Notes: generated by a model not told the origin, from the letters alone. DNA of 64,000 bases from an uncultured Chitinophaga sp. (GCA_964355075.1 CAYHCF010000002.1:16480-80479); one strand, 5' to 3'. Numbered from the stretch's first letter, positions 23,953 to 48,604 are shown. Numbers and translations: made by a program.

Positions 23953-25116
23953 ATGAAAACATTAGAAAAAATAATACAAGATTGTGAATCACTGGCATTT
24001 GACTTGAGTTTTACAAGGGCTAAGGAGTGGAAATCGGAAGATCCAAAGCGAATTATTGTAGGTTATCTACCTATCTATATCCCGCGTGAAATTATTCATG
24101 CTGCAAATGGAATTGCGGTAGGCATTATGGGTTCAGGCGACCGAAAACAGATTATCAAGGGAGACGCTTATTATCAATCCTATATATGTCATTTCCCAAG
24201 AGGTGTTATCGAAATGGCATTAGATAACAATCTGGATGGATTTGACGGATTTCTGTTCCCTGCCATATGTGACTGTGTTCGGAATCTTTCGGGCATGTTT
24301 AAATTATCCAAAAAGGGGAAATTTCAACGTTATTTTGACTACCCTCAAAATTTCGAATCCCATATAGGTGGAACTTTTTACAAACAGGAAATTGAAAAGG
24401 TTCTGGACGATATGTTTGCCATCAACGGGATAAAGGTTACTACCAAAGCACTTAATCAATCGATCCTTTTATATAACAGAAACAGAAACCTGATTGAGAA
24501 AATATATGATATCAGACAAGCAACGCCATGGAAACTATCAGCCGTTGAAACCTATTATATTCTTAGAGCTGGTCAGGTAATTCCTGTTGAAGAGCACAAT
24601 GAAATATTGGAACAAGTAGTTTCTCATTTACAAAATGAGAGAGGAGAGCCAATGGACAATATCCGTATAGTTGTTAGCGGCTCCTTCTGCGAACAACCCC
24701 CAATTGGCTTGATAAAGTCGATAGAATTGGCAGGTTGCTATATTGTGGAGGATGATTTTATGTTGGGATCAAGACTCATACAGGGAAATATAAACGCAGA
24801 TTCAGACATCCCTCTGGAAACCCTGGCAGATGCCTATATCAATCACAGTACATTCTCCTCGGCTTTTTATGATGTTGGAAATCCCAAGGGAAAACGACTG
24901 GTAAAACTGGCAAAGGAAAGAAATGCAGATGGTATCATTTTCTGTGCGGCCAGCTTTTGTGACCCTGCCCTACTCGACCGCCCGGAAATGCAGAAAGAAT
25001 GTGACCTTGCAGGAATTCCGCATATCAATTTCCAATTCCATGAAAATACCGGTCAGTTTAAAGTAATAAAAGAACAAGCCGGAACTTTCTCTGATTCGAT
25101 AAAGCTTTGGGCATAA
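23953..25116 (+). CDS. bcrC: Benzoyl-CoA reductase (class I) subunit C-like protein (BCR/2-hydroxyacyl-CoA dehydratase family)
   Basis: 387 aa, first gene of a C-B-A-D ordered set. N-terminal ...RAKEWK...IVGYLPIYIPREIIHAANG and the Cys pattern are typical of the family. Size and position match BcrC/BadD as I recall them. Confidence 0.6.
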   Translation: MKTLEKIIQDCESLAFDLSFTRAKEWKSEDPKRIIVGYLPIYIPREIIHAANGIAVGIMGSGDRKQIIKGDAYYQSYICHFPRGVIEMALDNNLDGFDGFLFPAICDCVRNLSGMFKLSKKGKFQRYFDYPQNFESHIGGTFYKQEIEKVLDDMFAINGIKVTTKALNQSILLYNRNRNLIEKIYDIRQATPWKLSAVETYYILRAGQVIPVEEHNEILEQVVSHLQNERGEPMDNIRIVVSGSFCEQPPIGLIKSIELAGCYIVEDDFMLGSRLIQGNINADSDIPLETLADAYINHSTFSSAFYDVGNPKGKRLVKLAKERNADGIIFCAASFCDPALLDRPEMQKECDLAGIPHINFQFHENTGQFKVIKEQAGTFSDSIKLWA

Positions 25117-25239
25117 TTCAAATTATGAGTTATGAGTTATGAATTTGATTTATTAATGTTTAACGGATAGGTGGAGATTGCATCTGCCCTTCATGGATGA
25201 AAACAATGTTTTAAATATAAAAAAAAATTATTAATTATT

Positions 25240-26544
25240 ATGAGCAAAGGACATCAAGAGGCAATTAAAGAAAATAGCATGGTTATCCAAAAGGAGATGC
25301 TTGCCAAACAATTTAAGGAATTAAGTACTGCGAGTGAACTTGGCAAAAAAGTTGTTTATACTTTTGTTCCGGGAAACCTTACCGAACTTATTCTATCATT
25401 TGACATGCTACCGGTGTACCCCGAGATCAATGCCTTGCAGTCGGGTATGCGAAAAAAATCTGCTGATTATATCCGCGACGCTGAAAAGGTAGGATACTCA
25501 GAAGATGTTTGTACTTACGTAAAATGCGATGTAGGAATGATGTTGAACGGAAATATTGGTCCAACAGGAGAAAAAATTCCGCCACCCGATTTATTATTAT
25601 TGAGCTATACAGGTTGTTTTACTTTTTTAAAATGGTTTGAGAATCTCGAACGCTTGTATCCGGGAGTACCGGTTGCCATGTTGCATACACCCTATCAGGA
25701 AGATGGTAAAATATCTCAGGATCAAATTGACTACATGGTTAAACAAATGAAAGAGGAAGTGATACCAAAAATGGAAATGGTATCCGGGCAGAAATTTGAT
25801 ATGGACCGTCTTTCAAAGATGCTTGTAAATTCAGCAAAAGCTGAAGACTTACTGGTAAAGATTTTAGAGAGTGCAAAACAGGTGCCATCACCTATTGATG
25901 CTTATTTTGCCGGCGTATATTATATAGGCCCGATTTTCACGGCTTTTAGAGGTACCGAAGAAGCTGTAGAATATTATACTGAACTATGGAATGAGGTTCA
26001 GGAAAGAATGAGATTGGGTTTAGGCCCTATTACTCCGGAAGGGGAATTGAAAGAAGAGAAATTCAGGTTGGTTGTTGAAGGACCTCCTAACTGGACTAAT
26101 TTCAGAGAGTTTTGGAAAATATTTTATGATATGGGAGCTGTTATAGTTGCCTCATCCTACACCAAAGTGGGTGGTGTTTACGATCAGGGGTTCAGACATG
26201 ACAGTAAAGAACCGCTTGAAAGTTTAGCAAAATATTGTATGGGGGTTTACACCAATCTGAACCTGCCACAACGTGTGGACATGCTTGAAAAATATGTAAA
26301 AGATTATAAGGCCGACGGTTTTCTTATCAATTCCATAAAAAGCTGCAACTCCTTCTCTGCAGGCCAATTAATGATTATGAGAGAGATTGAACAGAGGGCT
26401 GGAGTGCCTGTTGGATTTATCGAATCTGATTTGGTTGACCCCAGGTACTTTTCCTATGCCAATATTAAGAATAGATTAGAATCGTATTTCCAGATGTTGG
26501 GTCAGCGGAAAATCATAATAAAACAGGTAGAAGCAGAAGTGTAA
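25240..26544 (+). CDS. bcrB: Benzoyl-CoA reductase (class I) subunit B-like protein
   Basis: 434 aa BCR/HAD-family protein (VVYTFVPGNLTELILSFDMLPVYPE..., CTYVKCD). Second position in the four-gene set; size close to BcrB/BadE. Confidence 0.6.
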   Translation: MSKGHQEAIKENSMVIQKEMLAKQFKELSTASELGKKVVYTFVPGNLTELILSFDMLPVYPEINALQSGMRKKSADYIRDAEKVGYSEDVCTYVKCDVGMMLNGNIGPTGEKIPPPDLLLLSYTGCFTFLKWFENLERLYPGVPVAMLHTPYQEDGKISQDQIDYMVKQMKEEVIPKMEMVSGQKFDMDRLSKMLVNSAKAEDLLVKILESAKQVPSPIDAYFAGVYYIGPIFTAFRGTEEAVEYYTELWNEVQERMRLGLGPITPEGELKEEKFRLVVEGPPNWTNFREFWKIFYDMGAVIVASSYTKVGGVYDQGFRHDSKEPLESLAKYCMGVYTNLNLPQRVDMLEKYVKDYKADGFLINSIKSCNSFSAGQLMIMREIEQRAGVPVGFIESDLVDPRYFSYANIKNRLESYFQMLGQRKIIIKQVEAEV

Positions 26545-26712
26545 TTGGTAATCGGTAATTGGTAATTGGTAATTGGTAATTGGTAATCGGTAATTGGTCC
26601 CTTCGACAAGCTCAGGATGACAAATTTTGTTGTCATAGTGAGCCTGTCGAACTACGGTAATTGGTATTTGGTAATCGGTAATTGGTAATCGGTAATTGGT
26701 AATTGGTAATTG
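26541..26712. repeat. Composite repeat: 8 x GTAATYG heptamers, a 50-nt imperfect palindromic core, then 8 x GTAATYG heptamers
   Basis: Heptamer arrays at 26541-26596 and 26657-26712 lie in direct orientation. The core hairpin has arms 26602-26623 and 26630-26651 (22-nt arms, 3 mismatches). The first heptamer overlaps the bcrB-like stop codon. Confidence 0.9.
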
Positions 26713-26750
26713 GTTTAAAAAAAATAAATTAGCATATAAAATAGAATTAA

Positions 26751-28166
26751 ATGAATAAATATTATCTTGGAGTTGATCTTGGCTCCACAACATCAAAGGC
26801 GGTTATCATAAACGATCAGGATGAAATTATTGGTCGTGGAATTACCAATACCCGCGCCAACTACTCGGTGGCGGCAGATATAGCCAGGGAAGAAGCGATT
26901 TATAACGCTCGTTTTTCCATACTCAAAAAAAATCTTGAAAAAGATATGGAATCGAATCCCGAGTACAGAAAGTATATTTCAGATCTGGAAAGTGTTTTTC
27001 AATATGAACAATTCAAAGTTCGGATTGATAAGTTGGGCGAGGAGCTGGTAAAAACCTGTAATAGTTACCTGTCGGGAGACAAGAAAGATCTCATGCTGGA
27101 GAATTTAAGAAATATCAGAAAAGTAATTAAGCCAAAAATAAAACATGCGTATATTTTCGGTGATCTGGGTTCCAAAAATCAGTTTTTCAGGGATATCGTT
27201 TCAGAGCTTTACAACGAAGAAGTAAACAAGCTCGACAGTTCATTATTTGAACCTTTAATGACTATTTGGGATAAAAGTATCAGTCCGGCCGAGAATCAGG
27301 CTGTTGAATTCAACTTCTTTGAATTGATCCAGAAGGCAATGGAATTGCTTAGAGAAAAATATGAAAACCTTCCTGATAATCTCGAAGATGAAAGCATCAA
27401 TTTTGATGCTGAATTAAATTTATTAAAAGGCAAGTTTTATAATGTTAGCGATTCCTTACGCGAGCACATTCATAATATTGCCAGGATTGAATTTAATATT
27501 ACCAATATGACCGGAACGGGCTATGGTCGTGCACTACTTCCATTTCCTCAGGAATGTATCCGTTCTGAAATTTTATGTCATGCTTTTGGTGCCCACGCAA
27601 TTTTTCCTGAAACCCGAACGGTTTTAGACATAGGTGGTCAGGATACCAAAGCAATTCAGGTTGATAAATACGGATTGGTTACCAGTTTCCAGATGAACGA
27701 CAGATGTGCTGCAGGTTGTGGAAGGTACTTAGGTTATATCGCCGATGAGATGAGCATATCTTTAAACGAATTAGGACCCATGGCGATGAAAGCAGAAAAG
27801 GAAGTAGTGATTTGTTCTACCTGTACTGTTTTTGCCGGAGCTGAATTAAGGGAACTTACCAATCTTGGTGAGAAACGAGAGGACATTCTGGGCGGCTTAC
27901 ACAAGGCCATTATTATGCGGGCAATGTCGCTGATTGCCCGTTCAGGTGGTGTATTTAACGAATTTACTTTTACCGGAGGGGTTGCGAGAAATCAGGCGGT
28001 GATTAAGTACCTTACCCAATTAGTAAGAGAAAATTACGGAAATGATATTGTAATAAATATTCACACCGATTCAATTTTTATGGGAGCATTGGGAGGAGCC
28101 ATGTTTGCAAGAAGGAACATGGTTGCTGATTTACCAACTACAAAAAAAACAAAAGAATTAGCATAA
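26751..28166 (+). CDS. bcrA: Benzoyl-CoA reductase subunit A-like ATPase (BcrAD/BadFG family, with insertion)
   Basis: 471 aa. YLGVDLGSTTSKAV (phosphate 1), LDIGGQDTKAI, MNDRCAAGCGRYL and CSTCTVFAGAE (cluster-bridging Cys positions). An insert of about 170 aa follows the first strand region, as in BcrA/BadF-type subunits. Confidence 0.65.
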   Translation: MNKYYLGVDLGSTTSKAVIINDQDEIIGRGITNTRANYSVAADIAREEAIYNARFSILKKNLEKDMESNPEYRKYISDLESVFQYEQFKVRIDKLGEELVKTCNSYLSGDKKDLMLENLRNIRKVIKPKIKHAYIFGDLGSKNQFFRDIVSELYNEEVNKLDSSLFEPLMTIWDKSISPAENQAVEFNFFELIQKAMELLREKYENLPDNLEDESINFDAELNLLKGKFYNVSDSLREHIHNIARIEFNITNMTGTGYGRALLPFPQECIRSEILCHAFGAHAIFPETRTVLDIGGQDTKAIQVDKYGLVTSFQMNDRCAAGCGRYLGYIADEMSISLNELGPMAMKAEKEVVICSTCTVFAGAELRELTNLGEKREDILGGLHKAIIMRAMSLIARSGGVFNEFTFTGGVARNQAVIKYLTQLVRENYGNDIVINIHTDSIFMGALGGAMFARRNMVADLPTTKKTKELA

Positions 28167-28182
28167 AAATAAATAATAATAA

Positions 28183-29022
28183 ATGATGGAAAATTTTTAT
28201 ACAATGGGGATCGATGTGGGTTCTAATTTTATCAAACTTGTATTGGTAGATTACTCCAATAATCCTCAAATAATTGACAAGCACACTGAAAAGATCAGAA
28301 AGCGCAATCCTTCAGTTGTGGCTGAAGAATTGATTCAGGGGATGTTGACGAAAAACAATCTTCAATATGAAGACATTGCATATCTGGCTTCAACCGGTGA
28401 AGGAGATTTGGTAAAACGCAAACGAGGACATTTTTATGGAATGACCACACATGCCAAAGGAGCACACTATTTCTTTCCGGATGCCATTACCGTAGTGGAT
28501 ATGGGAGCGCTATATGTAAGAGCCATTAAAATGACGACAGATGCCCGCGTTCAGGATTATAAGATGACCGGTCAGTGCGCCTCCGGATCGGGACAATTTG
28601 TTGAAAACATTTCGCGCTATCTGGGACTGTCTATTGAAGAAGTAGGAGGTGTTTCCCTGCAAGCTGAAGCTCCCGAATTATCTTCCGGGATTTGTGCAGT
28701 ATTGGCTGAAACTGATGTAATCAATATGGTTTCAAGAGGAATTAAAACACCAAATATTATCAAAGGAATTCACCTCTCCATAGCCAGCAGAATCATTAAA
28801 CTACTAAGCTCCCTCAAGGCAGAATCTCCGATCGTTATTACCGGGGGGATGTCGTTGAATAGTGGCATGATACAGGCCATTGAAGAACAATTACTGGAAA
28901 CCGGGAAAAAATATGTTATCAAAACGCATCCCGACGCCATTTATGCAGGCGCAATCGGTGCGGCTTTGTGGGGAGGATTCAGGCATATTAAATTGAAGGA
29001 AAAGCAAGCTGAACTGGTATAA
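28183..29022 (+). CDS. bcrD: Benzoyl-CoA reductase subunit D-like ATPase (BcrAD/BadFG family)
   Basis: 279 aa. MGIDVGSNFIKLV, TGQCASGSGQFVEN, GICAVLAETDVIN and ITGGMSLN. Last gene of the C-B-A-D order. Confidence 0.65.
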   Translation: MMENFYTMGIDVGSNFIKLVLVDYSNNPQIIDKHTEKIRKRNPSVVAEELIQGMLTKNNLQYEDIAYLASTGEGDLVKRKRGHFYGMTTHAKGAHYFFPDAITVVDMGALYVRAIKMTTDARVQDYKMTGQCASGSGQFVENISRYLGLSIEEVGGVSLQAEAPELSSGICAVLAETDVINMVSRGIKTPNIIKGIHLSIASRIIKLLSSLKAESPIVITGGMSLNSGMIQAIEEQLLETGKKYVIKTHPDAIYAGAIGAALWGGFRHIKLKEKQAELV

Positions 29023-29157: not shown

Positions 29158-31290
29158 ATGGATTATCAGGGTGAGACAGAAAGTATTGGATCCATTGGAA
29201 TTGAAAACGAATTGGATTCCTTGTTTAAGCCAAAGTCTATTGCAATTATCGGGGCTTCATCAAAAGAACTATCTATCGGAAATGTTATCATTAAAAATCT
29301 GATTCATTTCGGGTTTACAGGAAAAATATTTCCGATTAATCCTAAGGAACCTGAAATTAGGGGAATTAAAGCTTATCCCTCTATATTGGACGTGGAAGAA
29401 AGCATTGATTTGGCGCATATCATTATTCCTTCCAAATTTGTTCCACAAATCATTGAAGAATGTGGTAAAAAGGGTGTTAAATCTGTTATCATAAACTCTG
29501 CAGGATTTAGTGAAATGGGCGAAGAAGGCATGGCACTTCAAAAAGCATTTCTAAGCAAAGCAAAAGAATATGGCATCAGGGTATTTGGCCCAAATTGCCA
29601 GGGGATTATCAATACAGATCCTGTGTATAAAGCCTATTGCGATTTCACCTTTACTTTTCCTGAACCGGGCTCTGTATCGATTGTTGCATTGAGCGGAGGT
29701 GTAGGAGCATTCATTATGCAAAGTTTGTTCGACCTTGAAATTGGAATGCGTTATTATGCCTCCAATGGAAATGCTTGTGATATCTCAATTTCGGAGGTTT
29801 TAGAATATTATGGCAATGATGAAGCTACCAAAGCAATCATTCTATATACCGAAGGATTTAAAAATCCAAGAGAATTCATGGAAGTAGCAAAGACTGTTGC
29901 AAAGAAAAAACCCATACTCGCAATGAAATCAGGCAGAACCGAAGAAGGGGCACAGGCTGCAGCTTCTCATACAGGTTCACTTGCCGGAGTTGATATTTCA
30001 ACTGAATTGATTTTTGAAAAAACAGGAATACTATCCTTTACGAACGAAGAAGAAATGTGTCAGGCAGCAAAAGCATTTTCTTCTCAACCCATTCCAAAAG
30101 GTAACCGGGTTGGTATTATTACCAATACAGGAGGTCCGGCTGTTATTGCCACTGATGAATTGGTAAATTCAGGTATGCATATCCCTCCCCTTTCTGAAAA
30201 AGCAAAAACCATATTACAACAAACTCTTTTGCCTGAAGCCAGTATAGGAAATCCAATTGATGTTGTGGCAACGGGTGGAGGAATTCATTTCAGAAGTGCT
30301 TTAGATGTAATGATGGATGAAGAACAAATTGATTCAGTTTTCATCAATTTTGTAACTGCCCCCTTTACGGATACAAATGAGGTTGCCAGAAATATTGTAG
30401 CAGTAAACCAACAAAAGAGAAAACCCATCATCTGCAATTTTATGACCAATATGAGTCTGGAGCGTTTTCAGGAAACTGCAAAAATTCTCAAAGATGGCGG
30501 AGTTCCCTGCTATAGCTTTCCAACCACCGCAGCCAAGGCTCTCGGGGCATTATATAAATACCATCAATTGCAATCCAGGTATATTGGTGTTCCAAAATAT
30601 TTTAATGATGTAAATAAAACAAAAGCAGATTCCATTTTGAACCAGGTAAACGTTACAGGAGAATTCCTTTCAAGTAGTCACGCATATGAATTGCTTTCAG
30701 CTTATGGGATTCCGGTTGCGGATTGGTGTATAGCTCATACGGTTGATGAGGCTATTACAGGTGCCAGAGAAATCGGATACCCTGTTGTAATCAAAGCGGA
30801 AACAAAATCATTGATACACAAAAGTGATCAGGGTGGCGTGGCAATTAATCTGATCAATGAAGAAGAGGTTCGATATGTAATTGAAAAGATGCAAGAGCAG
30901 TTTTTGGACAATGATTTGAAGTTTTTTGTTCAGAAATTTCTTCCCGGAGTGAAAGAATTAGTTGTGGGTGTGAGCGGACAAAGAGATTTGGAGCACCTGA
31001 TTATGTTTGGTTTGGGGGGGATTTATGTTGAAGTATTGAAAGATGTTGTATTCAAACTTTCTCCAATTACCGAATTGGAAGCGAATGAAATGATTTCATC
31101 GGTAAAAGCAGCAAAATTACTGGAAGGGGTAAGAGGGAAAAGTGGAATTGACAAGCGGAGTGTAATTGACATTATTCTTCGTATTTCTCAATTGGTAAAT
31201 GATTTCCCTCAAATAAAAGAAATGGATCTGAACCCGATTATGGCATTTGAGGACTGCGCGTATGTTGTGGATGCGAGGATTATGGTATAG
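29158..31290 (+). CDS. ADP-forming (NDP-forming) acyl-CoA synthetase, fused alpha-beta type
   Basis: 710 aa. CoA-binding Rossmann (IAIIGAS...GN), succinyl-CoA-synthetase-like ligase domain with phosphohistidine motif AASHTGSLAG, and a C-terminal ATP-grasp domain. Confidence 0.8.
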   Translation: MDYQGETESIGSIGIENELDSLFKPKSIAIIGASSKELSIGNVIIKNLIHFGFTGKIFPINPKEPEIRGIKAYPSILDVEESIDLAHIIIPSKFVPQIIEECGKKGVKSVIINSAGFSEMGEEGMALQKAFLSKAKEYGIRVFGPNCQGIINTDPVYKAYCDFTFTFPEPGSVSIVALSGGVGAFIMQSLFDLEIGMRYYASNGNACDISISEVLEYYGNDEATKAIILYTEGFKNPREFMEVAKTVAKKKPILAMKSGRTEEGAQAAASHTGSLAGVDISTELIFEKTGILSFTNEEEMCQAAKAFSSQPIPKGNRVGIITNTGGPAVIATDELVNSGMHIPPLSEKAKTILQQTLLPEASIGNPIDVVATGGGIHFRSALDVMMDEEQIDSVFINFVTAPFTDTNEVARNIVAVNQQKRKPIICNFMTNMSLERFQETAKILKDGGVPCYSFPTTAAKALGALYKYHQLQSRYIGVPKYFNDVNKTKADSILNQVNVTGEFLSSSHAYELLSAYGIPVADWCIAHTVDEAITGAREIGYPVVIKAETKSLIHKSDQGGVAINLINEEEVRYVIEKMQEQFLDNDLKFFVQKFLPGVKELVVGVSGQRDLEHLIMFGLGGIYVEVLKDVVFKLSPITELEANEMISSVKAAKLLEGVRGKSGIDKRSVIDIILRISQLVNDFPQIKEMDLNPIMAFEDCAYVVDARIMV

Positions 31291-31339: not shown

Positions 31340-32560
31340 ATGTATAAAATTCAAACAAGCAAATTAATGAAGGAAATAATGGCAAATTATTTCCTGGGAA
31401 TGAAAGATCCATCAAAAAAAATTGCATGGTGTACGAGTGTTGGCCCTGCTGAACTATTACGCTCATTTGGTTTTGAGGTTCATTTTCCTGAAAATCACGG
31501 TGCCTTATTGGGAGCTACCCGAACGGCGAATGATTTGATTCCTGAATCAGCCATTTTGGGATATTCCAATGATATTTGCTCTTATTTAACTGCAGATATC
31601 GGTTCCTACTTAACCAAACAGACTCCATTAAAAGAGCACTATGGATTAAATGGACCCCCAAGACCTGACCTGATTGTATATAATACCAATCAATGCCGCG
31701 AGGTACAGGATTGGTTCACTTATTTTGCAAGAGAGTTGAATTGCCCGATATTTGGCATTAACCCACCCAGACATGTAACGGAAGTAACACAGGAGGAGAT
31801 TGAAGATGTTGCCTCTCAATTCAAAGCTATGATACCTGTATGTGAAAAGGCAAGCGGCTTAAAATTTGATATCGACCGATTTAGGGAAGTGTTAAAATTA
31901 AGCAAGGAAGCAACCGATTTATGGAAGAAGGTATTGAATACAGCCACTATTTCTCCTGCTCCCATCAGCTTTTTTGATGCCACCATACATATGGGACCCA
32001 TCGTGGTTTTAAGGGGAACAGAGATTGCGAAAGTATATTACGAAACGCTCCTGAGTGAATTAGAAGAAAACGTAAAAAAAGGAATGGGATTTTTAGAAAA
32101 AGAAAAGTCTCGTATATACTGGGATGGGATGCCCATCTGGGGTAAATTGAGATCCTTGTCTGATTTATTTATTCAAAATAATTCGGCAGTGGTAGCTTCC
32201 ACTTATTGTAACAGCTGGATATTTGATGCATTTGATGAAAGAAATCCTTTTGAGTCATCTGCAAAAGCGTATACTGAGATATTTATTAATAGAAGCGAAG
32301 AAGCCAAGCAGAAAATACTCAGTAATCTCGTTCACGATTTCCACGTGGATGGAATGATATTCCATGATGCCAAAACATGCTCTAATAACTCGAACTCAAG
32401 ATTTGGAATGCCTCAGCGAATATCGGAAACACTTGGAATTCCAACCCTGGTCATTGAGGGTGATTTGTGCGATTTGCGATTTTATTCGGAAGGTCAGAGT
32501 GTCACTAAAATTGAAACATTTATTGAGCAGATCGAAAGCTCAAACGTATTCAGTCAATAG
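31340..32560 (+). CDS. Stand-alone 2-hydroxyacyl-CoA dehydratase/BCR-family (D-component-like) protein
   Basis: 406 aa. Family-typical N-terminus (KKIAWCTSVGPAELLRSFGFEVHFPENH). 8 Cys, including WCTS, ICSY, QCRE, YCNS, TCSN and LCDL. No partner subunit gene is adjacent. Confidence 0.7.
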   Translation: MYKIQTSKLMKEIMANYFLGMKDPSKKIAWCTSVGPAELLRSFGFEVHFPENHGALLGATRTANDLIPESAILGYSNDICSYLTADIGSYLTKQTPLKEHYGLNGPPRPDLIVYNTNQCREVQDWFTYFARELNCPIFGINPPRHVTEVTQEEIEDVASQFKAMIPVCEKASGLKFDIDRFREVLKLSKEATDLWKKVLNTATISPAPISFFDATIHMGPIVVLRGTEIAKVYYETLLSELEENVKKGMGFLEKEKSRIYWDGMPIWGKLRSLSDLFIQNNSAVVASTYCNSWIFDAFDERNPFESSAKAYTEIFINRSEEAKQKILSNLVHDFHVDGMIFHDAKTCSNNSNSRFGMPQRISETLGIPTLVIEGDLCDLRFYSEGQSVTKIETFIEQIESSNVFSQ

Positions 32561-33091: not shown

Positions 33092-34942
33092 ATGATGGAA
33101 AAATCAGAAAAACTAAAAGTCGGAGTGGTAGGATTAGGTCCTGTTGGAATGATTCTGGCAGTCAAATTAAAAGAGGCTGACTGCGAAGTTTCGATATGCG
33201 ATAAAGATGATTTTAAACTTAAAAAAATAAGAGAAAGCGGTATTGTATTAGAAAATGCCATTGAATCGAGTACCCGTTTCGAACGGATTTTTGATTCGAT
33301 TGTGGATATGAGATCTCAGGATCTTGATTACCTCATTTTCGCTTTAAAATCTTATCAAACAATAGGAGCTGTTAAAGAGGCTGAGTTATTAAATACAGAA
33401 AAACTCACTTTGGTTTCGGCTCAAAATGGGATAGATGTAGAACAGCTAATTACGGCAACTTTTGGCGAATCCAAAACGCTGCGCATGATTGTAAATTTTG
33501 CCGGAAATATGAAATCCGCAAATACAGTAAAGGTTTCTTTTGTAAATCCTCCAAATTATTTAGGTTCGGTTGATGACAGCAGAACAAAGGAAGCGATTAT
33601 TCTTGCTGAAACTTTGAATAAAGTTGGATTCAGAACTGAAAAATTAGATTCTTTTGACCTGGTAAAAAGCATTTGGCAGAAAACAATTTTAAATGCATCT
33701 TTAAGTGCTTTATGCGGTGTGGGCAGGTTAACTATGGCTGAGGCTATGGCTGATAATGATACAATGGAACTCGTTGAACAAATCATGAATGAGGGAATTG
33801 AGGTTGCCGAAAAGGAGAAGATTCGTTTTGCAGATGATTTTGTTAGAAAATGCATGCAATATCTTAAAAAGGGGGGCGACCATTTTCCCTCATTATCTGT
33901 TGACTTAATAAATAACCGGCCCACCGAAATAGATTTTTTTAATGGAAAAATTGTTGAATATGGCAAAAAGCATTATGTAAAAACTTCTCTAAACCTGGCA
34001 TTTACAAATATGGTGAAGGCCATGACCAATAAAAATGTATTAAACCGGTTTCCCGGTATTGATGAAGAATTATATAAAAAAATTATCAATAAAGGAATGA
34101 TTGAAAAGAGTCGTTCCACTATTTATTATAAAGAACATGATTGCTTCCTTGGAATTGACTTAGGATCGGCATTTACCAAGTTTAATATTATTGATGGGAA
34201 CTCCAATCCCGTGTTCAGGTATATTTTACCTACCATGAACAAAGACCGGAATGCCATGAAAAATGTTCTGAAATCAATTTATGCTTCCTTCCAGATTAAA
34301 CATAGTTGCGCAACCGGTTATGGCAGGAAACATTTTACAGAAACAGATATTATAAAAACAGAAATAAACTGTGCGGCTGTTGGGGTGGGTGAATTTTTCC
34401 AGGGAGAGAAAAATATCATTGATATTGGAGGAGAAGATATTAAGATCATTCATACCAATCAAGAGAATTTTGTTGCAAATTTTTACATGAACGACAAATG
34501 TGCTGCAGGTACCGGCGCTTTTCTGGAAGAAATTTCGGAGAGAGCAGAAATAAATAACGGCGAAATGAGTAGTCTGGCAGCACATTCGTCATTTGATAAA
34601 GAGTTAAATAGTTTCTGTACGGTATTTGCTAAAACCGAGATCATGAGTTGGGTATTTGAAGGCATGATGAAACAAGACATTGCAAGAGGAATCTATATTT
34701 CAATCGCCAATAAAGTAGCGAAAATGAAACTATTCCCAAATATTCCTACTTATTTAATCGGAGGCGTGGTAGCCCATCATCCCTATCTTGGAAATATTTT
34801 AAGCGAAAAATTCCATAAAGAAATACACGCGCTCGACAATCCCCAATATATTGTTGCACACGGTGCTGCTATTTTGGCTAAAGAAAACTGGCTTTTAAAC
34901 AATCCTAAAGAATTCATTATTTCAGAATCCATAACAAATTAA
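33092..34942 (+). CDS. Fusion protein: ketopantoate reductase (ApbA/PanE)-like NAD(P)-binding oxidoreductase plus HgdC/BcrAD-type activase ATPase
   Basis: The N-terminal region of about 320 aa has VGVVGLGPVGMILAVKL (Rossmann) and a PanE-like C-terminal helical part (...TEIDFFNGKIV). The C-terminal region of about 270 aa has FLGIDLGSAFTKF, DIGGEDIKII, MNDKCAAGTGAFLEE and SFCTVFAKTE. Confidence 0.7.
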   Translation: MMEKSEKLKVGVVGLGPVGMILAVKLKEADCEVSICDKDDFKLKKIRESGIVLENAIESSTRFERIFDSIVDMRSQDLDYLIFALKSYQTIGAVKEAELLNTEKLTLVSAQNGIDVEQLITATFGESKTLRMIVNFAGNMKSANTVKVSFVNPPNYLGSVDDSRTKEAIILAETLNKVGFRTEKLDSFDLVKSIWQKTILNASLSALCGVGRLTMAEAMADNDTMELVEQIMNEGIEVAEKEKIRFADDFVRKCMQYLKKGGDHFPSLSVDLINNRPTEIDFFNGKIVEYGKKHYVKTSLNLAFTNMVKAMTNKNVLNRFPGIDEELYKKIINKGMIEKSRSTIYYKEHDCFLGIDLGSAFTKFNIIDGNSNPVFRYILPTMNKDRNAMKNVLKSIYASFQIKHSCATGYGRKHFTETDIIKTEINCAAVGVGEFFQGEKNIIDIGGEDIKIIHTNQENFVANFYMNDKCAAGTGAFLEEISERAEINNGEMSSLAAHSSFDKELNSFCTVFAKTEIMSWVFEGMMKQDIARGIYISIANKVAKMKLFPNIPTYLIGGVVAHHPYLGNILSEKFHKEIHALDNPQYIVAHGAAILAKENWLLNNPKEFIISESITN

Positions 34943-34944
34943 TT

Positions 34945-36207
34945 ATGAAATCCTATCACGATAAAGACAAAGGTATTGCCATTTCATTTGACGATATCTA
35001 TTTAGTAAACGGAGTAAGAACTCCTTTTGGAAAATTTTGCGGAACCTTGGCAAATGTATCTCCTACAGATTTGGGGATATTCGCGTCAAAGGCTGCATTA
35101 AAAAAATCGGGAATTGAGCCTGACGATATTGATCAGGCCATTATAGCGAATATCGGACAAGCCTCTGGCGATGCCTATTTTCTTCCAAGGCATATCTCCT
35201 TATTTGCCGGGTTACGTATGACCGTTCCCTCATTAATGGTGCAGAGAATCTGTGCTTCAGGATTTGAAACACTCATTACTGCCGCCGAACAGATTACTTT
35301 AAATAAAGCAGGATCTGTTTTATGTTGTGGAACCGAAAACATGTCGCTTGCACCCACCGTAAGCTTTGGAAACCGGATGGGTTATGCTCTGGGAAGACCT
35401 GTTTTTAAAGATATGTTGTGGGAAGCTTTAGATGATACCGCTGCCGGATATCCAATGGGGTTTACGGCAGAAAATGTTGCCAAAAAACATCAAATCACCC
35501 GGGAACAATGCGATGAATTTGCATACCTGTCCTTTCAAAGAGCTTTGAATGCACAAAATAAGGAAATCTTTAAAGATGAAATTACTCCCATTAATTCAAC
35601 CGTGTTTGAAATAGAAGGGTTGAAACCAAGAAAGGTTCGTTTACCGGGTGGTGTTAAAAATTTTATAACGGATGAACAGATTCGCGATACTTCCATTGAA
35701 TCTCTAGCAAAATTACCAACCGTATTTTCTGAAGTTGGTGTTTTAACCCCGGGAAATTGCAGCGGTATCGTTGATGGAGCGGGTGCAGCTGTGGTTGCTG
35801 ATGCGAATACGGTTAAATCGAAGAATTTGAAACCCATCGCAAAAATTGTAGCTGCTGCCAGTTGCGGTATTGACCCAAAAATAATGGGATTGGCTCCTGT
35901 ACCTGCCATTCAGTTACTTCTCGAATTTACCGGATTAAAGATAGAGGATATCGGTTTGTTTGAAATAAATGAAGCATTTTCAGCACAGTTGATTGGTTGT
36001 GAAATCGAACTTGGACTAGACCGGGATAAACTAAATGTGAATGGGGGTGCCATCGCAATCGGGCATCCTTTGGCAGCATCGGGATTAAGACTTTCCTTAA
36101 CCATTATCCGTGAAATGAATTTGAGAAACATTAAATACGGAATTGCATCAGCTTGTATTGGAGGCGGACAAGGAACCGCGATTTTATTTGAAAATATTAA
36201 TCTATAA
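34945..36207 (+). CDS. Acetyl-CoA C-acyltransferase (thiolase)
   Basis: 420 aa. VQRICASGFE (active Cys), NEAFSAQ, NVNGGAIAIGHPLAASG and ACIGGGQGTA. Confidence 0.9.
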   Translation: MKSYHDKDKGIAISFDDIYLVNGVRTPFGKFCGTLANVSPTDLGIFASKAALKKSGIEPDDIDQAIIANIGQASGDAYFLPRHISLFAGLRMTVPSLMVQRICASGFETLITAAEQITLNKAGSVLCCGTENMSLAPTVSFGNRMGYALGRPVFKDMLWEALDDTAAGYPMGFTAENVAKKHQITREQCDEFAYLSFQRALNAQNKEIFKDEITPINSTVFEIEGLKPRKVRLPGGVKNFITDEQIRDTSIESLAKLPTVFSEVGVLTPGNCSGIVDGAGAAVVADANTVKSKNLKPIAKIVAAASCGIDPKIMGLAPVPAIQLLLEFTGLKIEDIGLFEINEAFSAQLIGCEIELGLDRDKLNVNGGAIAIGHPLAASGLRLSLTIIREMNLRNIKYGIASACIGGGQGTAILFENINL

Positions 36208-37284: not shown

Positions 37285-38385
37285 ATGGAAGAATTAAAAA
37301 ATCACAATATAGTTGATGTAAACTATAAAGAAATCATTTTCGAAAAACGTCCTTGCCTGGATAAGGATGGAACACCGGTTGATAAATTATTCAATGCCTG
37401 GATCATTATCAATAATCCAAAACAATTTAATTCGTACACTACGGCTGCCATAAAGGAATTAATACTTGCATTTCGGCAGGCTTCAAATGACCGAAGTGTT
37501 GTTGCTGTTGTTCTGACTTCGGTTGGTGATAAAGCATTTTGTACCGGTGGAAACACCAAAGAATATGCAGAATACTATGCAGGAAATCCCCAGGAATATT
37601 CACAATACATGCGTTTATTCAATGATATGGTTTCAACTATTCTGATGTGTGAAAAACCGGTTATCTGCCGTGTAAACGGAATGAGAATTGGCGGCGGTCA
37701 GGAAATTGGAATGGCTTGCGATTTTAGCGTTGCAAGTGATATGGCCAGATTTGGACAAGCAGGGCCAAAACATGGCAGTGCGGCTATAGGCGGAGCCACC
37801 GACTTTCTACCGCTATACGTTGGAGTTGAACGCGCTATGATGTCGTTAACCTTGTGTGAGCCATGGACAGCACATCAGGCTTATTATTATGGGGTTATTA
37901 CTGATATCGCTCCGGTTTTAAAAGCAGATGGGAAATTTATTGCCAATCCTTTGGTTCAAACAGAAAAAATAATGGACGAATATGGCAAGATTTCTTTTGG
38001 AACCATGAAAACAGGTGATGAACTCGCCAAAGCAAAGGAAATTGTTTCCAAATGTGAGACTGATTTAAGCATGCTGGATAAGGCCGTGAATAGCCTGATT
38101 TCAAAAATATTGCATACCTTCCCTAATTGTATGAGTAAAACCATCAGTGAGGTTCGCAAGTTTAAATTGGAACATTGGGATAAAAATAAAGAAGGAAGCC
38201 GCGAATGGCTGGCTTTAAATATGATGAGCGAAGCAAAAGCAGGATTCAAAGCATTTAATGATGGGCCTAAAGATAACAGGGAAGTTAATTTTATTTTATT
38301 AAGGCAATTACTTGCTGAAGGTCATGAGTGGAATGAGGAATTACATCATGCTATTTCACCGCAGTATCAGGCGTCAAATAATTAG
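37285..38385 (+). CDS. oah: Long crotonase-family protein; candidate 6-oxocyclohex-1-ene-1-carbonyl-CoA hydrolase (ring-cleaving, BamA/Oah)
   Basis: 366 aa, about 100 aa longer than ordinary enoyl-CoA hydratases. VGDKAFCTGGN and CRVNGMRIGGGQEIGMACDF resemble the Oah/BamA core as I recall it. Flanked by had-like and dch-like genes. Confidence 0.6.
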   Translation: MEELKNHNIVDVNYKEIIFEKRPCLDKDGTPVDKLFNAWIIINNPKQFNSYTTAAIKELILAFRQASNDRSVVAVVLTSVGDKAFCTGGNTKEYAEYYAGNPQEYSQYMRLFNDMVSTILMCEKPVICRVNGMRIGGGQEIGMACDFSVASDMARFGQAGPKHGSAAIGGATDFLPLYVGVERAMMSLTLCEPWTAHQAYYYGVITDIAPVLKADGKFIANPLVQTEKIMDEYGKISFGTMKTGDELAKAKEIVSKCETDLSMLDKAVNSLISKILHTFPNCMSKTISEVRKFKLEHWDKNKEGSREWLALNMMSEAKAGFKAFNDGPKDNREVNFILLRQLLAEGHEWNEELHHAISPQYQASNN

Positions 38386-39171: not shown

Positions 39172-41169
39172 ATGGAATCGTTAAAAACAGTTGGTGTTGT
39201 GGGAGCAGGTACGATGGGTTCAGCCCTCACTCAGAAATTTGCCCAGGAAGGATTTAAGGTTATTCTGGCAGACAGGACAATCAGCTTTGTAGACAGAGGA
39301 ATTAATGGCATAAAATCGAGTTTACAGGAAGGAATTCAAAAAAAGGTTTTTACAGAAGAACAAGCTGGTAAAACCCTCAGCAATATTTCCGGCACAGAAA
39401 ATCTGGAAGACTTAAAAGCTTGTGATATTGTTATTGAAGCCATATTTGAAAATTTTGATGCAAAAATTGATTTGTTTAAAAACCTATCAAATGTGTTATC
39501 CGATACTTGTATCATCGCAACCAATACTTCTTCTTTTTCAGTTAATGAATTAAGTGAATATGTAAAAAATCCTGAACGCTTTATTGGCTTGCATTATTTT
39601 TACCATGCGGCAAAAAATCGTCTGGTGGAAATTATCCCGAACAAAAAAACTTCTGCAGGTGTTATCGAAAGTGCCCGGCGTTTTTCGTTTATTTCAGGGA
39701 AAGATGCCATTTATTGTAAGGATTCCTACGGTTTTGTGGTAAACCGTTATTTTGTTCCCTGGTTGAATGAAGCTTGCAGGCTTCTGGAAGAAAATATTGG
39801 AAATATTCCTACCATTGATTCCGTTTGTTCAGAAAAATTTGGTGTAAGCATGGGTCCATTTGCATTAATGAATGCCACCGGAGTTCCCATTACCTATCAT
39901 TCCCAAAAAACACTTGAAGTATTTGGTGAACTCTATAAAACCTCAGAAATATTAAGGATTCAAACTGAATTAAACCAGCCATGGAGCCTTGAAGGAGAAG
40001 TATTGGCTGATGATGTGATCAGAAAAGAAATAGCGGAGCGGATGATCGGAATTGAATTTTTGGTATGTTCACAATTGCTTGAAGAAGAAACCTGCTCAGC
40101 CACCGAAATAAATCGTGGTGCCCGCATCGGTTTAAAATGGAGATCCGGCCCCATTGAATTAATGAGTAGATATGGCGAGGCAGAGACTCAAAGATTCGTA
40201 TCTTTAATAGCTAAAAGATACAATACCCCTGTTCCAGCTACGGTGGATTCAAGTTTCTGGAAACAAGCGTATGTATTATATGAAAAATGGGGTAAAAATG
40301 TTACCCTTACCATGTCGAGACCTGAAGATCTGAACGCACTTAATGAAGAGGTAATCAAACAACTTTTGGAAAAATTTACCATAGCTGATACAGATCCTGA
40401 AGTTGAAAATATCTTTTTGGTTGGTTCCGGAAAAGCCTTTGTTGCCGGCGCCGATATTAAATTTTTTGTTAAACACATGAAGGCGCTTTCCTTCGATAAA
40501 ATTGAAACCTTTACCCGATTCGGTCAGGACGTACTTGAAAGGATTGACCAATCAAACAAAAAGGTTATTGTTATTTTAAATGGAATGGCCTTAGGTGGAG
40601 GCTTAGAGCTGGCATTATGTGCCGACCTGATTGTGGCACTTCCAGGTGCAACTATGTCATTCCCGGAAACCGGTATTGGAATCTATCCGGGTTTGGGAGG
40701 AACACAGAGAAGCGCAAGAAGAATTGATAAAGCATTGAGTAAATACATGATTCATACCGGAAAGACATTAAGTGCAAAAGATGCTTTTGAAATTGGATTA
40801 GTAGATAAGGTCATTTCTGTTGAAGAAATGTTCGATTTGATTTATGGAAATATGGAATTACCTGCTCCTAATAAACCTGTCCTGAATGAAAAATGGCTCG
40901 CCATCAAGAATTTTTTCGAGGATCATAAGCTCGCTGAATTGCTCTCGCATCAGATTCACGATACACTGATTTCTAAAGAAGAAGCGGATCGCATTTGTAA
41001 AACATTGGCATTTAAAGCGCCTCTTGCTTTGCAATATGCCGACAAATTAATTGAAGATGCAAAAGGCTGCGCAGATGAATTGAATTATTTAACCAAAATT
41101 TTCAGCACGCAGGACGCATTGCTGGGATTGACTTCAATTGGAAAGCGGGTTGAATTTAAAGGGCACTAG
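39172..41169 (+). CDS. Bifunctional 3-hydroxyacyl-CoA dehydrogenase (N-terminal) / enoyl-CoA hydratase (C-terminal)
   Basis: 665 aa. VGVVGAGTMGSALTQ Rossmann and 3HCDH C-domains, then a crotonase fold (GSGKAFVAGADIKFF, LGGGLELALCAD, ETGIGIYPGLGGTQR). Confidence 0.85.
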   Translation: MESLKTVGVVGAGTMGSALTQKFAQEGFKVILADRTISFVDRGINGIKSSLQEGIQKKVFTEEQAGKTLSNISGTENLEDLKACDIVIEAIFENFDAKIDLFKNLSNVLSDTCIIATNTSSFSVNELSEYVKNPERFIGLHYFYHAAKNRLVEIIPNKKTSAGVIESARRFSFISGKDAIYCKDSYGFVVNRYFVPWLNEACRLLEENIGNIPTIDSVCSEKFGVSMGPFALMNATGVPITYHSQKTLEVFGELYKTSEILRIQTELNQPWSLEGEVLADDVIRKEIAERMIGIEFLVCSQLLEEETCSATEINRGARIGLKWRSGPIELMSRYGEAETQRFVSLIAKRYNTPVPATVDSSFWKQAYVLYEKWGKNVTLTMSRPEDLNALNEEVIKQLLEKFTIADTDPEVENIFLVGSGKAFVAGADIKFFVKHMKALSFDKIETFTRFGQDVLERIDQSNKKVIVILNGMALGGGLELALCADLIVALPGATMSFPETGIGIYPGLGGTQRSARRIDKALSKYMIHTGKTLSAKDAFEIGLVDKVISVEEMFDLIYGNMELPAPNKPVLNEKWLAIKNFFEDHKLAELLSHQIHDTLISKEEADRICKTLAFKAPLALQYADKLIEDAKGCADELNYLTKIFSTQDALLGLTSIGKRVEFKGH

Positions 41170-44042: not shown

Positions 44043-44748
44043 AGGTATTGGTAAATCAATTGCATTGCAGTTGTGTGCTGATGGATTTTTTGTAGTATTG
44101 ATAGATGTTGACAAGGAGGCAGGCATAAGTCTCGAGAAAGAGATAGGGAGTGATTTCAGCCATTTTATTCATGCCAATATCAATGATGAAAAATCGGTTC
44201 AGCAATTATTTGAAGAAGCAAAAAATAGCTACGGGTCGATTGATTTACTCGTAAATAATGCGGGTATAATCCGGGATAAAATGATCTGGAAAATGAGTCT
44301 GGATGAGTTTGATGAAGTTGTTTCGGTAAATTTGAAAGGAACCTGGATCATGTGCCGGGAAGCAGCAAAAATAATGAAAGAACAAACTTTTGGCAGAATC
44401 ATAAATATAGCCTCCAGAGCCTGGCTGGGTAATCCAGGACAATCGAATTATGCAGCCTCAAAAGCCGGTGTAATCGGGCTAACCAGGGTTCTTGCCCTGG
44501 AATTAGGAAGATACAATGTGTTGGTAAATGCTGTTGCCCCCGGCTTAATTGATACGCCTCTTACCCAAAATTTAGAAGCTTCGGTAAGAGAGAAGCTGAT
44601 ACAGGCTCAACCCACAAAAACTATTGGAAAACCGGAAGACGTAGCCAACGCAGTTTCCTTTCTGGCAAATGAAAAAACACAATTTATTACCGGACAGGTA
44701 TTGTATGTTGATGGCGGTAAAAATATTGGAGCAAATATGAGCTTATGA
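44005..44748 (+). CDS. Short-chain dehydrogenase/reductase (FabG-like)
   Basis: In-frame ATG at 44005 (MKKRLSIVTGAAKGIGKS). NNAG and the catalytic S...YAASK are present. Confidence 0.85.
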   Translation: MKKRLSIVTGAAKGIGKSIALQLCADGFFVVLIDVDKEAGISLEKEIGSDFSHFIHANINDEKSVQQLFEEAKNSYGSIDLLVNNAGIIRDKMIWKMSLDEFDEVVSVNLKGTWIMCREAAKIMKEQTFGRIINIASRAWLGNPGQSNYAASKAGVIGLTRVLALELGRYNVLVNAVAPGLIDTPLTQNLEASVREKLIQAQPTKTIGKPEDVANAVSFLANEKTQFITGQVLYVDGGKNIGANMSL

Positions 44749-47639: not shown

Positions 47640-47650
47640 GGGGTAATAAA

Positions 47651-48604
47651 ATGAGTGCTGAAAAAATATATCACTATGTAAATACCATTGAGCAAGCTTT
47701 TGAAATGGCAAACCAACATGTGCAAAACTTCAAATATCTTGCTGGTGGTACTGATGTGATGGTTAACCGATTTCAGGGAAATGATGAATCAGGATGTTTG
47801 ATTGATTTGTCCGGAATAAGCGAACTGAAAGAAATTAGCGTACAAGGAAATTATCTAAAAATTGGTACGCTTGTAAAGTTGAATGATCTAAAAAAACATA
47901 ACATAATTACCAAACAATTTCCTAGTCTGATACAAGCTGCAAACGAAGTTGGATCGCCCATTATAAGAAAAGCAGCCACTCTTGGCGGCAATATTTTATG
48001 TGAAAACCGATGTTCCTTTTTTAACCAAAGTGCGTGGTGGCGTGAGGCAGTTGGTTATTGTCTGAAATGTGAAGGAGATGTTTGTATTGCTACCGGAGGA
48101 ACAAAAGCCTGTTTCTCTAAATTTGTTTCTGATACCGCACCGGTATTAGTAAGCATGAATGCGCAAATAGAGGTAATTGATCATGCGGAAAGCATAGACG
48201 AAATAAAGACCATTCCGCTCGAAAGTATCTATACTGGCGATGGAATCAATCCAAGAAATTTGTCTAAAACTGCACTTATCAAAAACATTATTCTTCCTCT
48301 TGCTATAAATTATAAAGTAATATTCAAAAAATTACGTCCCCGAGAAGCGGTTGATTTTACTTCCTTAACCACTGCAGTTTCGCTGGATCAACAAGGAAAA
48401 GTAAAAATTGTTGTAGCGGGTGTTGATCCAAAACCTATAGTAGTTGAAGGTATGATGGCTGATTCTGAGGTACTGATTAAACAAATTCTAAAAAAAGCCA
48501 GAATCGTTGACAATGATTTTTATTCAAGAGCCTATAGAAAAGAAATGATGGGCTTATACCTGAAACAAAGCATGGAGGAGTTAGCGAGAGATGAGACCCT
48601 TTGA
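47651..48604 (+). CDS. Molybdenum hydroxylase FAD-binding (medium) subunit with Cys-rich insertion
   Basis: 317 aa. AGGTDVMV and ATLGGNI FAD_binding_5 motifs. An insertion of about 40 aa (LCENRCSFFNQSAWWREAVGYCLKCEGDVCIATGGTKACFSKF, 6 Cys) sits between GGNI and SDTAPVL. Confidence 0.8.
   Translation: MSAEKIYHYVNTIEQAFEMANQHVQNFKYLAGGTDVMVNRFQGNDESGCLIDLSGISELKEISVQGNYLKIGTLVKLNDLKKHNIITKQFPSLIQAANEVGSPIIRKAATLGGNILCENRCSFFNQSAWWREAVGYCLKCEGDVCIATGGTKACFSKFVSDTAPVLVSMNAQIEVIDHAESIDEIKTIPLESIYTGDGINPRNLSKTALIKNIILPLAINYKVIFKKLRPREAVDFTSLTTAVSLDQQGKVKIVVAGVDPKPIVVEGMMADSEVLIKQILKKARIVDNDFYSRAYRKEMMGLYLKQSMEELARDETL

Follow-up and report, generated by a model that had tools for sequence, protein, structure and literature searches.

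A predicted class I benzoyl-CoA reductase of the Thauera type in a gene island for anaerobic aromatic-acid degradation from an uncultured Bacteroidota bacterium

Four consecutive genes in a 64,000-nucleotide (nt) stretch of DNA from an uncultured Chitinophaga sp. (GCA_964355075.1 CAYHCF010000002.1:16480-80479; the whole of this stretch is called the window below) very probably encode, judging from their sequences, a functional class I, ATP-dependent benzoyl-CoA reductase (BCR) of the BCR (Thauera) type. The genes, termed bcrCBAD here, sit within a larger gene island for the anaerobic degradation of aromatic acids, the host being an uncultured Bacteroidota bacterium. The window is contained in ENA assembly ERZ4201064, where it lies on NODE_18 of 217 kb. 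The assignment is based on orthology, gene order, ligands, intact open reading frames (ORFs) and synteny, all of which were observed in the DNA. The four ORFs, intact, on the + strand and with ATG starts, span positions 23953-29022, where an original prediction made from the DNA alone had placed four genes of exactly the sizes found, 387, 434, 471 and 279 amino acids (aa):

23953..25116, + strand: bcrC-like gamma subunit (C), 387 aa; predicted electron-transfer Fe-S subunit of the catalytic dimer; TIGR02263
25240..26544, + strand: bcrB-like beta subunit (B), 434 aa; predicted catalytic subunit with the active-site [4Fe-4S] cluster; TIGR02260
26751..28166, + strand: bcrA-like alpha subunit (A), 471 aa; ATPase with the BcrA-specific inserted domain; TIGR02259
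28183..29022, + strand: bcrD-like delta subunit (D), 279 aa; ATPase; TIGR02261

The public gene call for the bcrD-like ORF begins one codon later, giving 278 aa.

Pfam searches assigned the bcrC-like and bcrB-like ORFs to HGD-D (E 3e-65 and 5e-67, respectively) and the bcrA-like and bcrD-like ORFs to BcrAD_BadFG (E 1e-67 and 1e-56), in agreement with the predicted succession of two subunits of the BCR/2-hydroxyacyl-CoA dehydratase (HAD) family and two BcrAD/BadFG ATPases. The best NCBIfam model for each of the four ORFs was the matching subunit equivalog of the BCR type (Thauera/Rhodopseudomonas), with C scoring 456.7 bits against TIGR02263 (cutoff 421) and B 697.2 bits against TIGR02260 (cutoff 487). 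The bzd-type NCBIfam models reached only 89-137 bits on the same ORFs (cutoffs 380-454).

For comparison with characterised enzymes, sequences of Thauera aromatica BcrC/BcrB, Thauera chlorobenzoica MbdN/MbdO and Aromatoleum BzdN/BzdO were taken from the source data accompanying Fuchs et al. 2025 (PMC11971306), and T. aromatica BcrA/BcrD were read from the genome locus fetched with the BcrB alignment (L007). Pairwise alignment showed T. aromatica BcrCBAD to be nearest, with identities of 47% for C (382 aa), 68% for B (423 aa), 46% for A (461 aa) and 51% for D (272 aa). The two systems have the same C-B-A-D order, as had been predicted, and subunit sizes of 386, 432, 438 and ~284 aa in T. aromatica versus 387, 434, 471 and 279 aa here; all of the cluster cysteines, the BcrA inserted domain and the degenerate ATP motif of BcrD are common to both, and in both the dch, had and oah genes are linked to the reductase genes. 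They differ in that had-oah-dch lies directly upstream of the reductase in T. aromatica but downstream in the window, with extra genes in between, that the ferredoxin gene (fdx) adjacent in T. aromatica has no counterpart in the window, and that genes for a hemerythrin, a HadB-like protein and a PanE::activase fusion accompany the window operon but not that of T. aromatica. The hosts also differ, Bacteroidota here as against Betaproteobacteria for T. aromatica.

The best solved-structure match for all four subunits was the 3-methylbenzoyl-CoA reductase (MBR) MbdONQP (PDB 9g87/9gai), with 206-212 bits for B, C and A, and the BCR and MBR types both have the permanent heterotetramer class of architecture (PMC11971306). 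Assignment to the MBR type was ruled out by the catalytic subunits, which are only 31 and 33% identical to MbdN and MbdO, and by ~195 extra residues in A compared with MbdQ (269 aa), which lacks the BcrA insertion; the MBR gene order, B-C-A-D (O-N-Q-P), is likewise unlike that of the window. BzdNOPQ of Aromatoleum sp. CIB (BZD type; PDB 8s02) is of the same enzyme class, and the three cluster cysteines, Tyr97, Tyr298 and probably Glu65 of BzdO are kept in B. Assignment to the BZD type was ruled out by the gene order, in which the two ATPase genes are reversed (N-O-P-Q, delta before alpha), by the 89-137 bits given above, by identities of only 25% to BzdN and 23% to BzdO, and by a Phe at the His131 position of BzdO; the extra cysteines by which BzdN holds its [8Fe-9S] cluster do not align with C.

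In the BzdNO crystal structure, Cys95, Cys128 and Cys380 are the ligands of the catalytic aqua-[4Fe-4S] cluster, and Glu65, Tyr97 and Tyr298 are active-site residues. The window B has C91, C126 and C369 at the positions of the three cysteines, Y93 at that of Tyr97 and Y307 at that of Tyr298. Its E62 (YPEIN) aligned with HadB E55 and BzdO E65 in two alignments and is the probable catalytic glutamate; the match is only probable because a larger MAFFT alignment displaces the N-terminal segment of BzdO, leaving the Glu65 equivalent assigned through HadB and the smaller alignment only and the Ser44 and Trp46 equivalents not assignable. At each of the BzdO active-site positions examined, barring three N-terminal ones with unreliable alignment, B carries the residue found in T. 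aromatica BcrB. These include the His131 position (Phe in the window B, T. aromatica BcrB and MbdO) and the Gln274 position (Pro in the window B and T. aromatica BcrB, Thr in MbdO), and we read both substitutions as a difference between enzyme types and not as a defect. In C, C79, C106 and C336 are invariant across BcrC, MbdN and BzdN, and C246 and C262 are common to BcrC and MbdN, so that the cluster-ligating cysteines are conserved in both subunits.

The two cysteines per ATPase which had been noted as bridging an inter-subunit [4Fe-4S] cluster are present as C319 (MNDRCAAGCG) and C358 (STCTVFAG) in A and C132 (QCASGSG) and C171 (ICAVLAE) in D, and align with the cluster ligands Cys127 and Cys166 of HgdC (1HUX) and also with MbdQ, BcrA and BcrD. 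D carries the degenerate phosphate motif D-x-G-A-L, as does T. aromatica BcrD. Relative to HgdC and MbdQ, A has ~195 residues inserted between positions ~56 and ~250, and the same inserted domain is found in T. aromatica BcrA. The impression that A was longer than expected for a BcrA was accurate, since it exceeds the T. aromatica protein by 33 aa (471 versus 438 aa), and this excess consists of a ~24-aa insertion (residues ~211-235) and an 11-13-aa C-terminal tail. Both are present in every Bacteroidota/Ignavibacteria relative (471-475 aa) and are clade traits.

Seven to ten kb downstream of the bcr genes, and on the same strand, lie genes for the lower part of a benzoyl-CoA pathway (had, oah and a dch-like gene), accompanied by two genes of acyl-CoA metabolism:

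34945..36207, + strand: thiolase, 420 aa
36211..37275, + strand: had, 6-hydroxycyclohex-1-ene-1-carbonyl-CoA dehydrogenase; TIGR03201 462 bits, above the cutoff of 339
37285..38385, + strand: oah, 6-oxocyclohex-1-ene-1-carbonyl-CoA hydrolase (ring cleavage); TIGR03200 584 bits, above the cutoff of 464; BadI 122 bits
38388..39161, + strand: dch-like cyclohexa-1,5-diene-1-carbonyl-CoA hydratase; TIGR03189 is the best match, 215 bits, below the cutoff of 292
39172..41169, + strand: FadB-like 3-hydroxyacyl-CoA dehydrogenase/enoyl-CoA hydratase fusion

The dch-like protein is 42% identical to the dch region of T. aromatica. BadDEFG of Rhodopseudomonas palustris presumably shares the BCR-type subunit order and falls within the NCBIfam equivalogs that match here. 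The R. palustris route, however, uses a BadI-type hydrolase, whereas the hydrolase of the window scores far higher as Oah than as BadI, and therefore points to the Thauera-type dienoyl-CoA route. Of the original assignment to a Thauera/Rhodopseudomonas-type reductase, the likeness to T. aromatica was upheld, while the downstream genes proved to be of the Thauera kind and not of the R. palustris kind.

These genes also bear on whether the four ORFs could specify, in place of a ring reductase, a 2-hydroxyacyl-CoA dehydratase and the activator belonging to it (lactyl-, phenyllactyl-, hydroxyglutaryl- or hydroxyisocaproyl-CoA type). Pfam by itself gives just HGD-D and BcrAD_BadFG, a genuine HAD-like module lies 2 kb downstream, and the (R)-2-hydroxyisocaproyl-CoA dehydratase HadBC with its activator HadI (PDB 3o3m, 4eht) belongs to the same BCR/HAD radical-enzyme superfamily and has the same cluster-Cys pattern in its alpha-type subunit and activator. 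Such a dehydratase is nonetheless barely credible here, being contradicted by the sequence comparisons: the hydroxyisocaproyl-CoA dehydratase models scored 198 (HadB) and 157 bits (HadC) against 697 and 457 bits for BcrB and BcrC, so that dehydratases are not the closest characterised homologues, and HadB is the closest characterised relative of a 406-aa protein downstream, not of BcrB or BcrC. Moreover, the window encodes two distinct ATPase subunits, one with the BcrA insertion, whereas HAD activators are homodimeric, and had, oah and dch lie within the same operon.

Further downstream is a molybdenum (Mo) enzyme resembling 4-hydroxybenzoyl-CoA reductase (4-HBCR), preceded by MobA-like, XdhC and SDR genes:

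42620-44748: MobA-like, XdhC and SDR genes, preceding the Mo enzyme
44745..48604, + strand: 4-HBCR-like Mo enzyme, comprising a fused gamma-alpha subunit (44745-47639, 964 aa) and an FAD-containing beta subunit (47651-48604)

The gamma-alpha protein scored 781 bits against TIGR03194, the best of the xanthine-oxidase family models although below its cutoff of 995, and the beta subunit 200 bits against TIGR03195, under the cutoff. This block is divergent beside bcrC in close relatives; in the window it lies ~14 kb downstream, on the same strand.

We infer the activity, substrate, stoichiometry and electron donor of the encoded enzyme from what is established for its family (PMC11971306 and earlier work on the Thauera BCR). 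BcrA and BcrD would form an ATP-hydrolysing, electron-activating dimer with one [4Fe-4S] cluster bridged by two cysteines from each subunit, and would accept an electron from a reduced ferredoxin encoded elsewhere. ATP hydrolysis is expected to lower the potential of this bridging cluster and so drive the electron to BcrC/BcrB, with BcrC acting as the relay. BcrB, holding by three cysteines an aqua-[4Fe-4S] cluster with an open coordination site, would bind benzoyl-CoA and reduce it to cyclohexa-1,5-diene-1-carbonyl-CoA, with 2 ATP predicted to be spent for every 2 electrons. The presumably co-transcribed Dch, Had and Oah would then carry out hydration, oxidation and ring opening, respectively, the thiolase and the FadB-like enzyme would shorten the ring-opening product, and the nearby 4-HBCR-like Mo enzyme together with a CoA synthetase may channel aromatic acids into benzoyl-CoA.

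Several observations weigh against a functional benzoyl-CoA reductase of this type. A scored 443.5 bits against TIGR02259, below the cutoff of 578, although this was its best match and full length (3-432 of 432), and D scored 310.6 bits against TIGR02261, ~2 bits under its cutoff of 312.85; the NCBIfam equivalog cutoffs against which these scores are read are an annotation convention and not a biochemical criterion. B is only 68% identical to T. aromatica BcrB, which could conceivably go with a shifted preference for substituted benzoyl-CoA. A six-frame search of the window for the ferredoxin motif CxxCxxCxxxC returned only SdhB, and thus no ferredoxin gene. The window carries heme A synthase and succinate dehydrogenase genes, and the host probably respires oxygen, while the enzyme class is oxygen-sensitive. 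A strongly folding repeat between the B and A genes, described below, could lower the expression of A and D. Lastly, all of the Bacteroidota sequences found come from metagenomes, and our literature search on benzoyl-CoA reductase in Bacteroidota/Ignavibacteria found no isolate or biochemistry for the clade.

The low scores and identities could also speak for a BCR-type class I aryl-CoA reductase whose physiological substrate is a substituted (methyl-, hydroxy- or halo-) benzoyl-CoA or another aryl-CoA: the clade is a distinct sister lineage to the characterised Proteobacterial enzymes, B being 68% identical and A and C only 46-47%, A and D fall under the equivalog cutoffs, and substrate-shifted class I relatives, such as the MBR type, exist. 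We regard this as unlikely, given that B equals T. aromatica BcrB at all reliably aligned BzdO active-site positions, that Had and Oah are of the standard unsubstituted kind and score above cutoff, and that the adjacent 4-HBCR-like enzyme would yield plain benzoyl-CoA.

BcrB has thousands of database relatives, and the best 120 clusters, 83-92% identical, come from many metagenome and metagenome-assembled genome (MAG) datasets; the named sources among them are MAGs of Flavobacteriales, Saprospiraceae, Ferruginibacter, Bacteroidia and Ignavibacteria. When one genome per species was scanned with N-terminal peptide patterns, 66 loci were returned, R. palustris not being among them, and the synteny comparison covered 74 loci. 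In Proteobacteria, Myxococcota and Planctomycetota the order is had-oah-dch-bcrCBAD, with fdx next in most of the Proteobacterial loci. The Bacteroidota/Ignavibacteria loci typically open with a hemerythrin gene and/or a divergent 4-HBCR-like cluster, followed by bcrCBAD and then by an AMP-forming ligase or ADP-forming synthetase, a HadB-like protein, a PanE::activase fusion, a thiolase and had-oah-dch. Unlike in Thauera and other Proteobacteria, fdx follows bcrD in none of the Bacteroidota/Ignavibacteria loci among the 74 compared. A ferredoxin gene beside bcrD is typical of Proteobacterial loci and is not defining for the BCR type.

Across roughly 40 Bacteroidota/Ignavibacteria loci of this operon, B is 74-94% and C 60-90% identical, and strong purifying selection is therefore indicated. 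In a neighbour-joining tree of BcrB, the Bacteroidota/Ignavibacteria sequences are monophyletic and sister to the other BCR-type sequences, and MbdO, the HadB-like paralogue and BzdO fall outside the BCR type. The closest species representative, Bacteroidota bacterium C13_metabat.bin.6, has identities of 90% for C, 94% for B, 93% for A and 92% for D. In the closest public MAG, only B and C bear the name of benzoyl-CoA reductase subunits, A and D being called 'BadF/BadG/BcrA/BcrD ATPase family protein'; the divergence of A probably explains both its score below the cutoff and the generic naming of A and D in that MAG. A Bacteroidota host is also indicated by type IX secretion sorting domains on neighbouring proteins and by the window Oah, which falls into one 90%-identity cluster together with proteins from Bacteroidota MAGs.

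Two further genes belong with this comparison of loci:

48761..49306, + strand: hemerythrin-domain protein; Pfam PF01814
19375..23700, + strand: protein of 1441 aa that combines DUF2229 with two activase (BcrAD_BadFG) domains; its ORF ends 253 nt upstream of bcrC

In Bacteroidota/Ignavibacteria, bcrCBAD is consistently accompanied by a gene for a ~180-aa hemerythrin-domain protein, which in many loci lies immediately upstream of bcrC; the Proteobacterial loci have no such gene. The linkage points to the sensing of oxygen or redox state, or to shielding of the oxygen-sensitive reductase. The 1441-aa protein, a member of the BCR/HAD superfamily, fills the slot held by the hemerythrin gene or the Mo-enzyme cluster in relatives. 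Among the loci compared it precedes bcrC only in the window's own contig, and it lies outside the conserved cluster.

Between bcrD and the thiolase gene lies an accessory module of four genes:

29158..31290, + strand: ADP-forming (NDP-forming) acyl-CoA synthetase, 710 aa; Pfam CoA_binding, Succ_CoA_lig and ATP-grasp_5
31340..32560, + strand: lone HadB/BcrB-like HGD-D protein, 406 aa; HadB model 222 bits, BcrB model 160 bits
32576..33049, + strand: 157-aa ORF without a Pfam match; 38% identical to residues 417-567 of the ligase of a related locus (L002), E 3e-32
33092..34942, + strand: fusion of a ketopantoate-reductase-family (PanE/ApbA) protein and an HgdC-type activase, 616 aa; Pfam ApbA, ApbA_C and BcrAD_BadFG

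The synthetase, a candidate aromatic-acid activating enzyme, sits in the slot which in many relatives is occupied by an AMP-forming ligase. The 157-aa ORF is, by its alignment, a free-standing remnant of the C-terminal domain of such a ligase, and was rejected as a small dehydratase subunit on the strength of that match. All of the relatives with an ADP-forming synthetase have a counterpart ORF of ~153 aa, and this small ORF diverges fast (30-54% identity versus 69-91% for its neighbours). The comparison of loci thus indicates that the ADP-forming synthetase replaced the AMP-forming ligase in the window's subclade, leaving the 157-aa ORF behind.

The 406-aa HadB-like protein is 28% identical to BcrB, keeps the three cluster cysteines and the glutamate of the PEN motif, and has no partner beta-type subunit, and its position is kept in the complete loci of the clade. 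In the fusion, the activase half has both cluster cysteines and the ATP motifs and the PanE half has the W-x-K and TEID motifs, and the nearest solved relatives of the dehydrogenase half are Enterococcus-type enzymes of the ketopantoate-reductase family. Of 744 relatives of the fusion found, the best 120 are fusions of ~600-634 aa, and the source names of these 120 are all Bacteroidota taxa or plain 'bacterium'. Public annotation labels the fusion merely '2-dehydropantoate 2-reductase'. The HadB-like protein and the fusion stand as a pair beside bcrCBAD throughout Bacteroidota/Ignavibacteria, and also in two loci of another lineage (L047 and L050).

The pair plausibly constitutes a new 2-hydroxyacyl-CoA dehydratase system. 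Beyond this, it is possible, though on balance doubtful, that the module represents an undescribed pathway variant in which a dehydratase made up of the lone HadB-like protein and the fusion, joined in the window's subclade by ADP-forming activation of acids, would take part in converting arylpyruvates through (R)-aryllactyl-CoA and cinnamoyl- or 4-coumaroyl-CoA to benzoyl- or 4-hydroxybenzoyl-CoA. In this tentative scheme the PanE half of the fusion would serve as a D-2-hydroxyacid dehydrogenase, the FadB-like enzyme and the thiolase would perform the chain shortening, and the benzoyl- and 4-hydroxybenzoyl-CoA so formed would enter the 4-HBCR-like enzyme and BcrCBAD. If true, such a feeder route would tie the breakdown of aromatic amino acids or phenylpropanoids to ring reduction in Bacteroidota, a phylum not known to us for anaerobic aromatic degradation. 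If the synthetase activates benzoate or related acids, activation would be cheaper than by the usual AMP-forming benzoate-CoA ligase.

The original prediction had also described a composite repeat wedged between the B and A genes without disrupting either, and this description was accurate, as the repeat is wholly intergenic and both ORFs are intact:

26541..26714, no strand assigned: composite repeat, 174 nt; (GGTAATT)n at 26541-26598, imperfect palindrome at 26602-26651, (GGTAATT)n at 26656-26714

The arrays hold 8.3 and 8.4 copies of GGTAATT around an imperfect 22-nt palindrome, and the whole lies inside the 206-nt gap between B and A (expected chance matches, 0). As RNA, the repeat would fold into a long hairpin (-50.4 kcal/mol, z = -4.5); a canonical terminator was rejected, there being no T-run (U-run) after the hairpin. 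In relatives, B and A are 12-36 nt apart, except in the closest relative (L070), whose gap of 119 nt holds a different small hairpin. The heptamer array and the palindrome core are absent from all 71 other related loci compared, and the repeat is therefore an insertion specific to this genome. That it marks an assembly join was rejected, the adjacency of B and A being syntenic in all relatives.

This insertion, unique to the genome, is one of four features which might suggest that the operon is a decaying or silenced relic: the AMP-forming ligase has shrunk to the 157-aa fragment, the Mo-enzyme cluster and the hemerythrin gene are relocated compared with close relatives, and heptamer arrays have entered even a coding region. 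Decay is very improbable, however, with the four bcr ORFs and all of the downstream pathway ORFs at full length and free of frameshifts and stops, and with the insertions either intergenic or in frame. The arrangement of synthetase and small ORF is common to the whole subclade and is therefore an established variant, not recent decay.

The enzyme type proposed for bcrCBAD is a familiar one, for which automatic annotation already exists in part in related genomes, and the core finding alters no concept. To our knowledge, work on class I benzoyl-CoA reductases has been confined to a few Proteobacteria, denitrifying and phototrophic ones, and the present clade is a large, tightly conserved Bacteroidota/Ignavibacteria branch of the BCR enzyme. 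Because BcrB of this clade is found in many metagenome and MAG datasets, abundant heterotrophs may aid the anoxic or micro-oxic turnover of aromatic acids. Standard annotation pipelines name only two of the four subunits and mislabel the fusion as a plain 2-dehydropantoate 2-reductase. Less ordinary is the material beside bcrCBAD, namely the lone HadB-like protein, the PanE::activase fusion, the ADP-forming synthetase and the lack of a ferredoxin gene; together with the hemerythrin and the ligase/synthetase swap, the HadB-like protein, the fusion and the missing ferredoxin point to differences in how substrate is fed in, how oxygen is handled and how electrons are supplied.

Scans of the window with tRNA and Rfam models gave no match, and over 23.5-29.3 kb promoter and terminator hits were no more numerous than in shuffled sequence. 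The palindrome arm TTYGACAAGCTCAGGATGAC of the composite repeat occurs in at least 120 metagenome stretches, intergenic and in DNA of 34-69% GC, and in the window the palindrome-arm element is present at 26602-26651 and 48600-48621. Those paired examples that were inspected show the arms as intergenic hairpins of the kind GTCATCCTGAGCTTGTCGAAGGA...TCCTTCGACAAGCTCAGGATGAC, whereas the window has the arms in the opposite order, flanked by heptamer arrays. The palindrome is thus one of a widespread class of small palindromic elements and is here joined with heptamer arrays common in this genome; we know of no name or function for the TTYGACAAGCTCAGGATGAC element.

More short heptamer arrays (TTATGAG, GAGATGG/GAAATGG) and small GC-rich hairpins occupy several gaps between genes of the island, at 25117-25239, 41169-41211, 41420-41480 and 48590-48730, and the hairpin in the C-B gap, GGAGATTGCATCTGCC, resembles one that the closest relative, L070, has between B and A. 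An (ACGATTT)n array at 46880-46967 lies inside the Mo-subunit ORF 44745-47639, where it forms an in-frame insertion of 28 aa (TIDDLRL TIDDLRF ATDELRL TNYEIRI) which is absent from an 80%-identical homologue in a related locus (L074); the reading frame is kept because three heptamers amount to 21 nt, or 7 codons.

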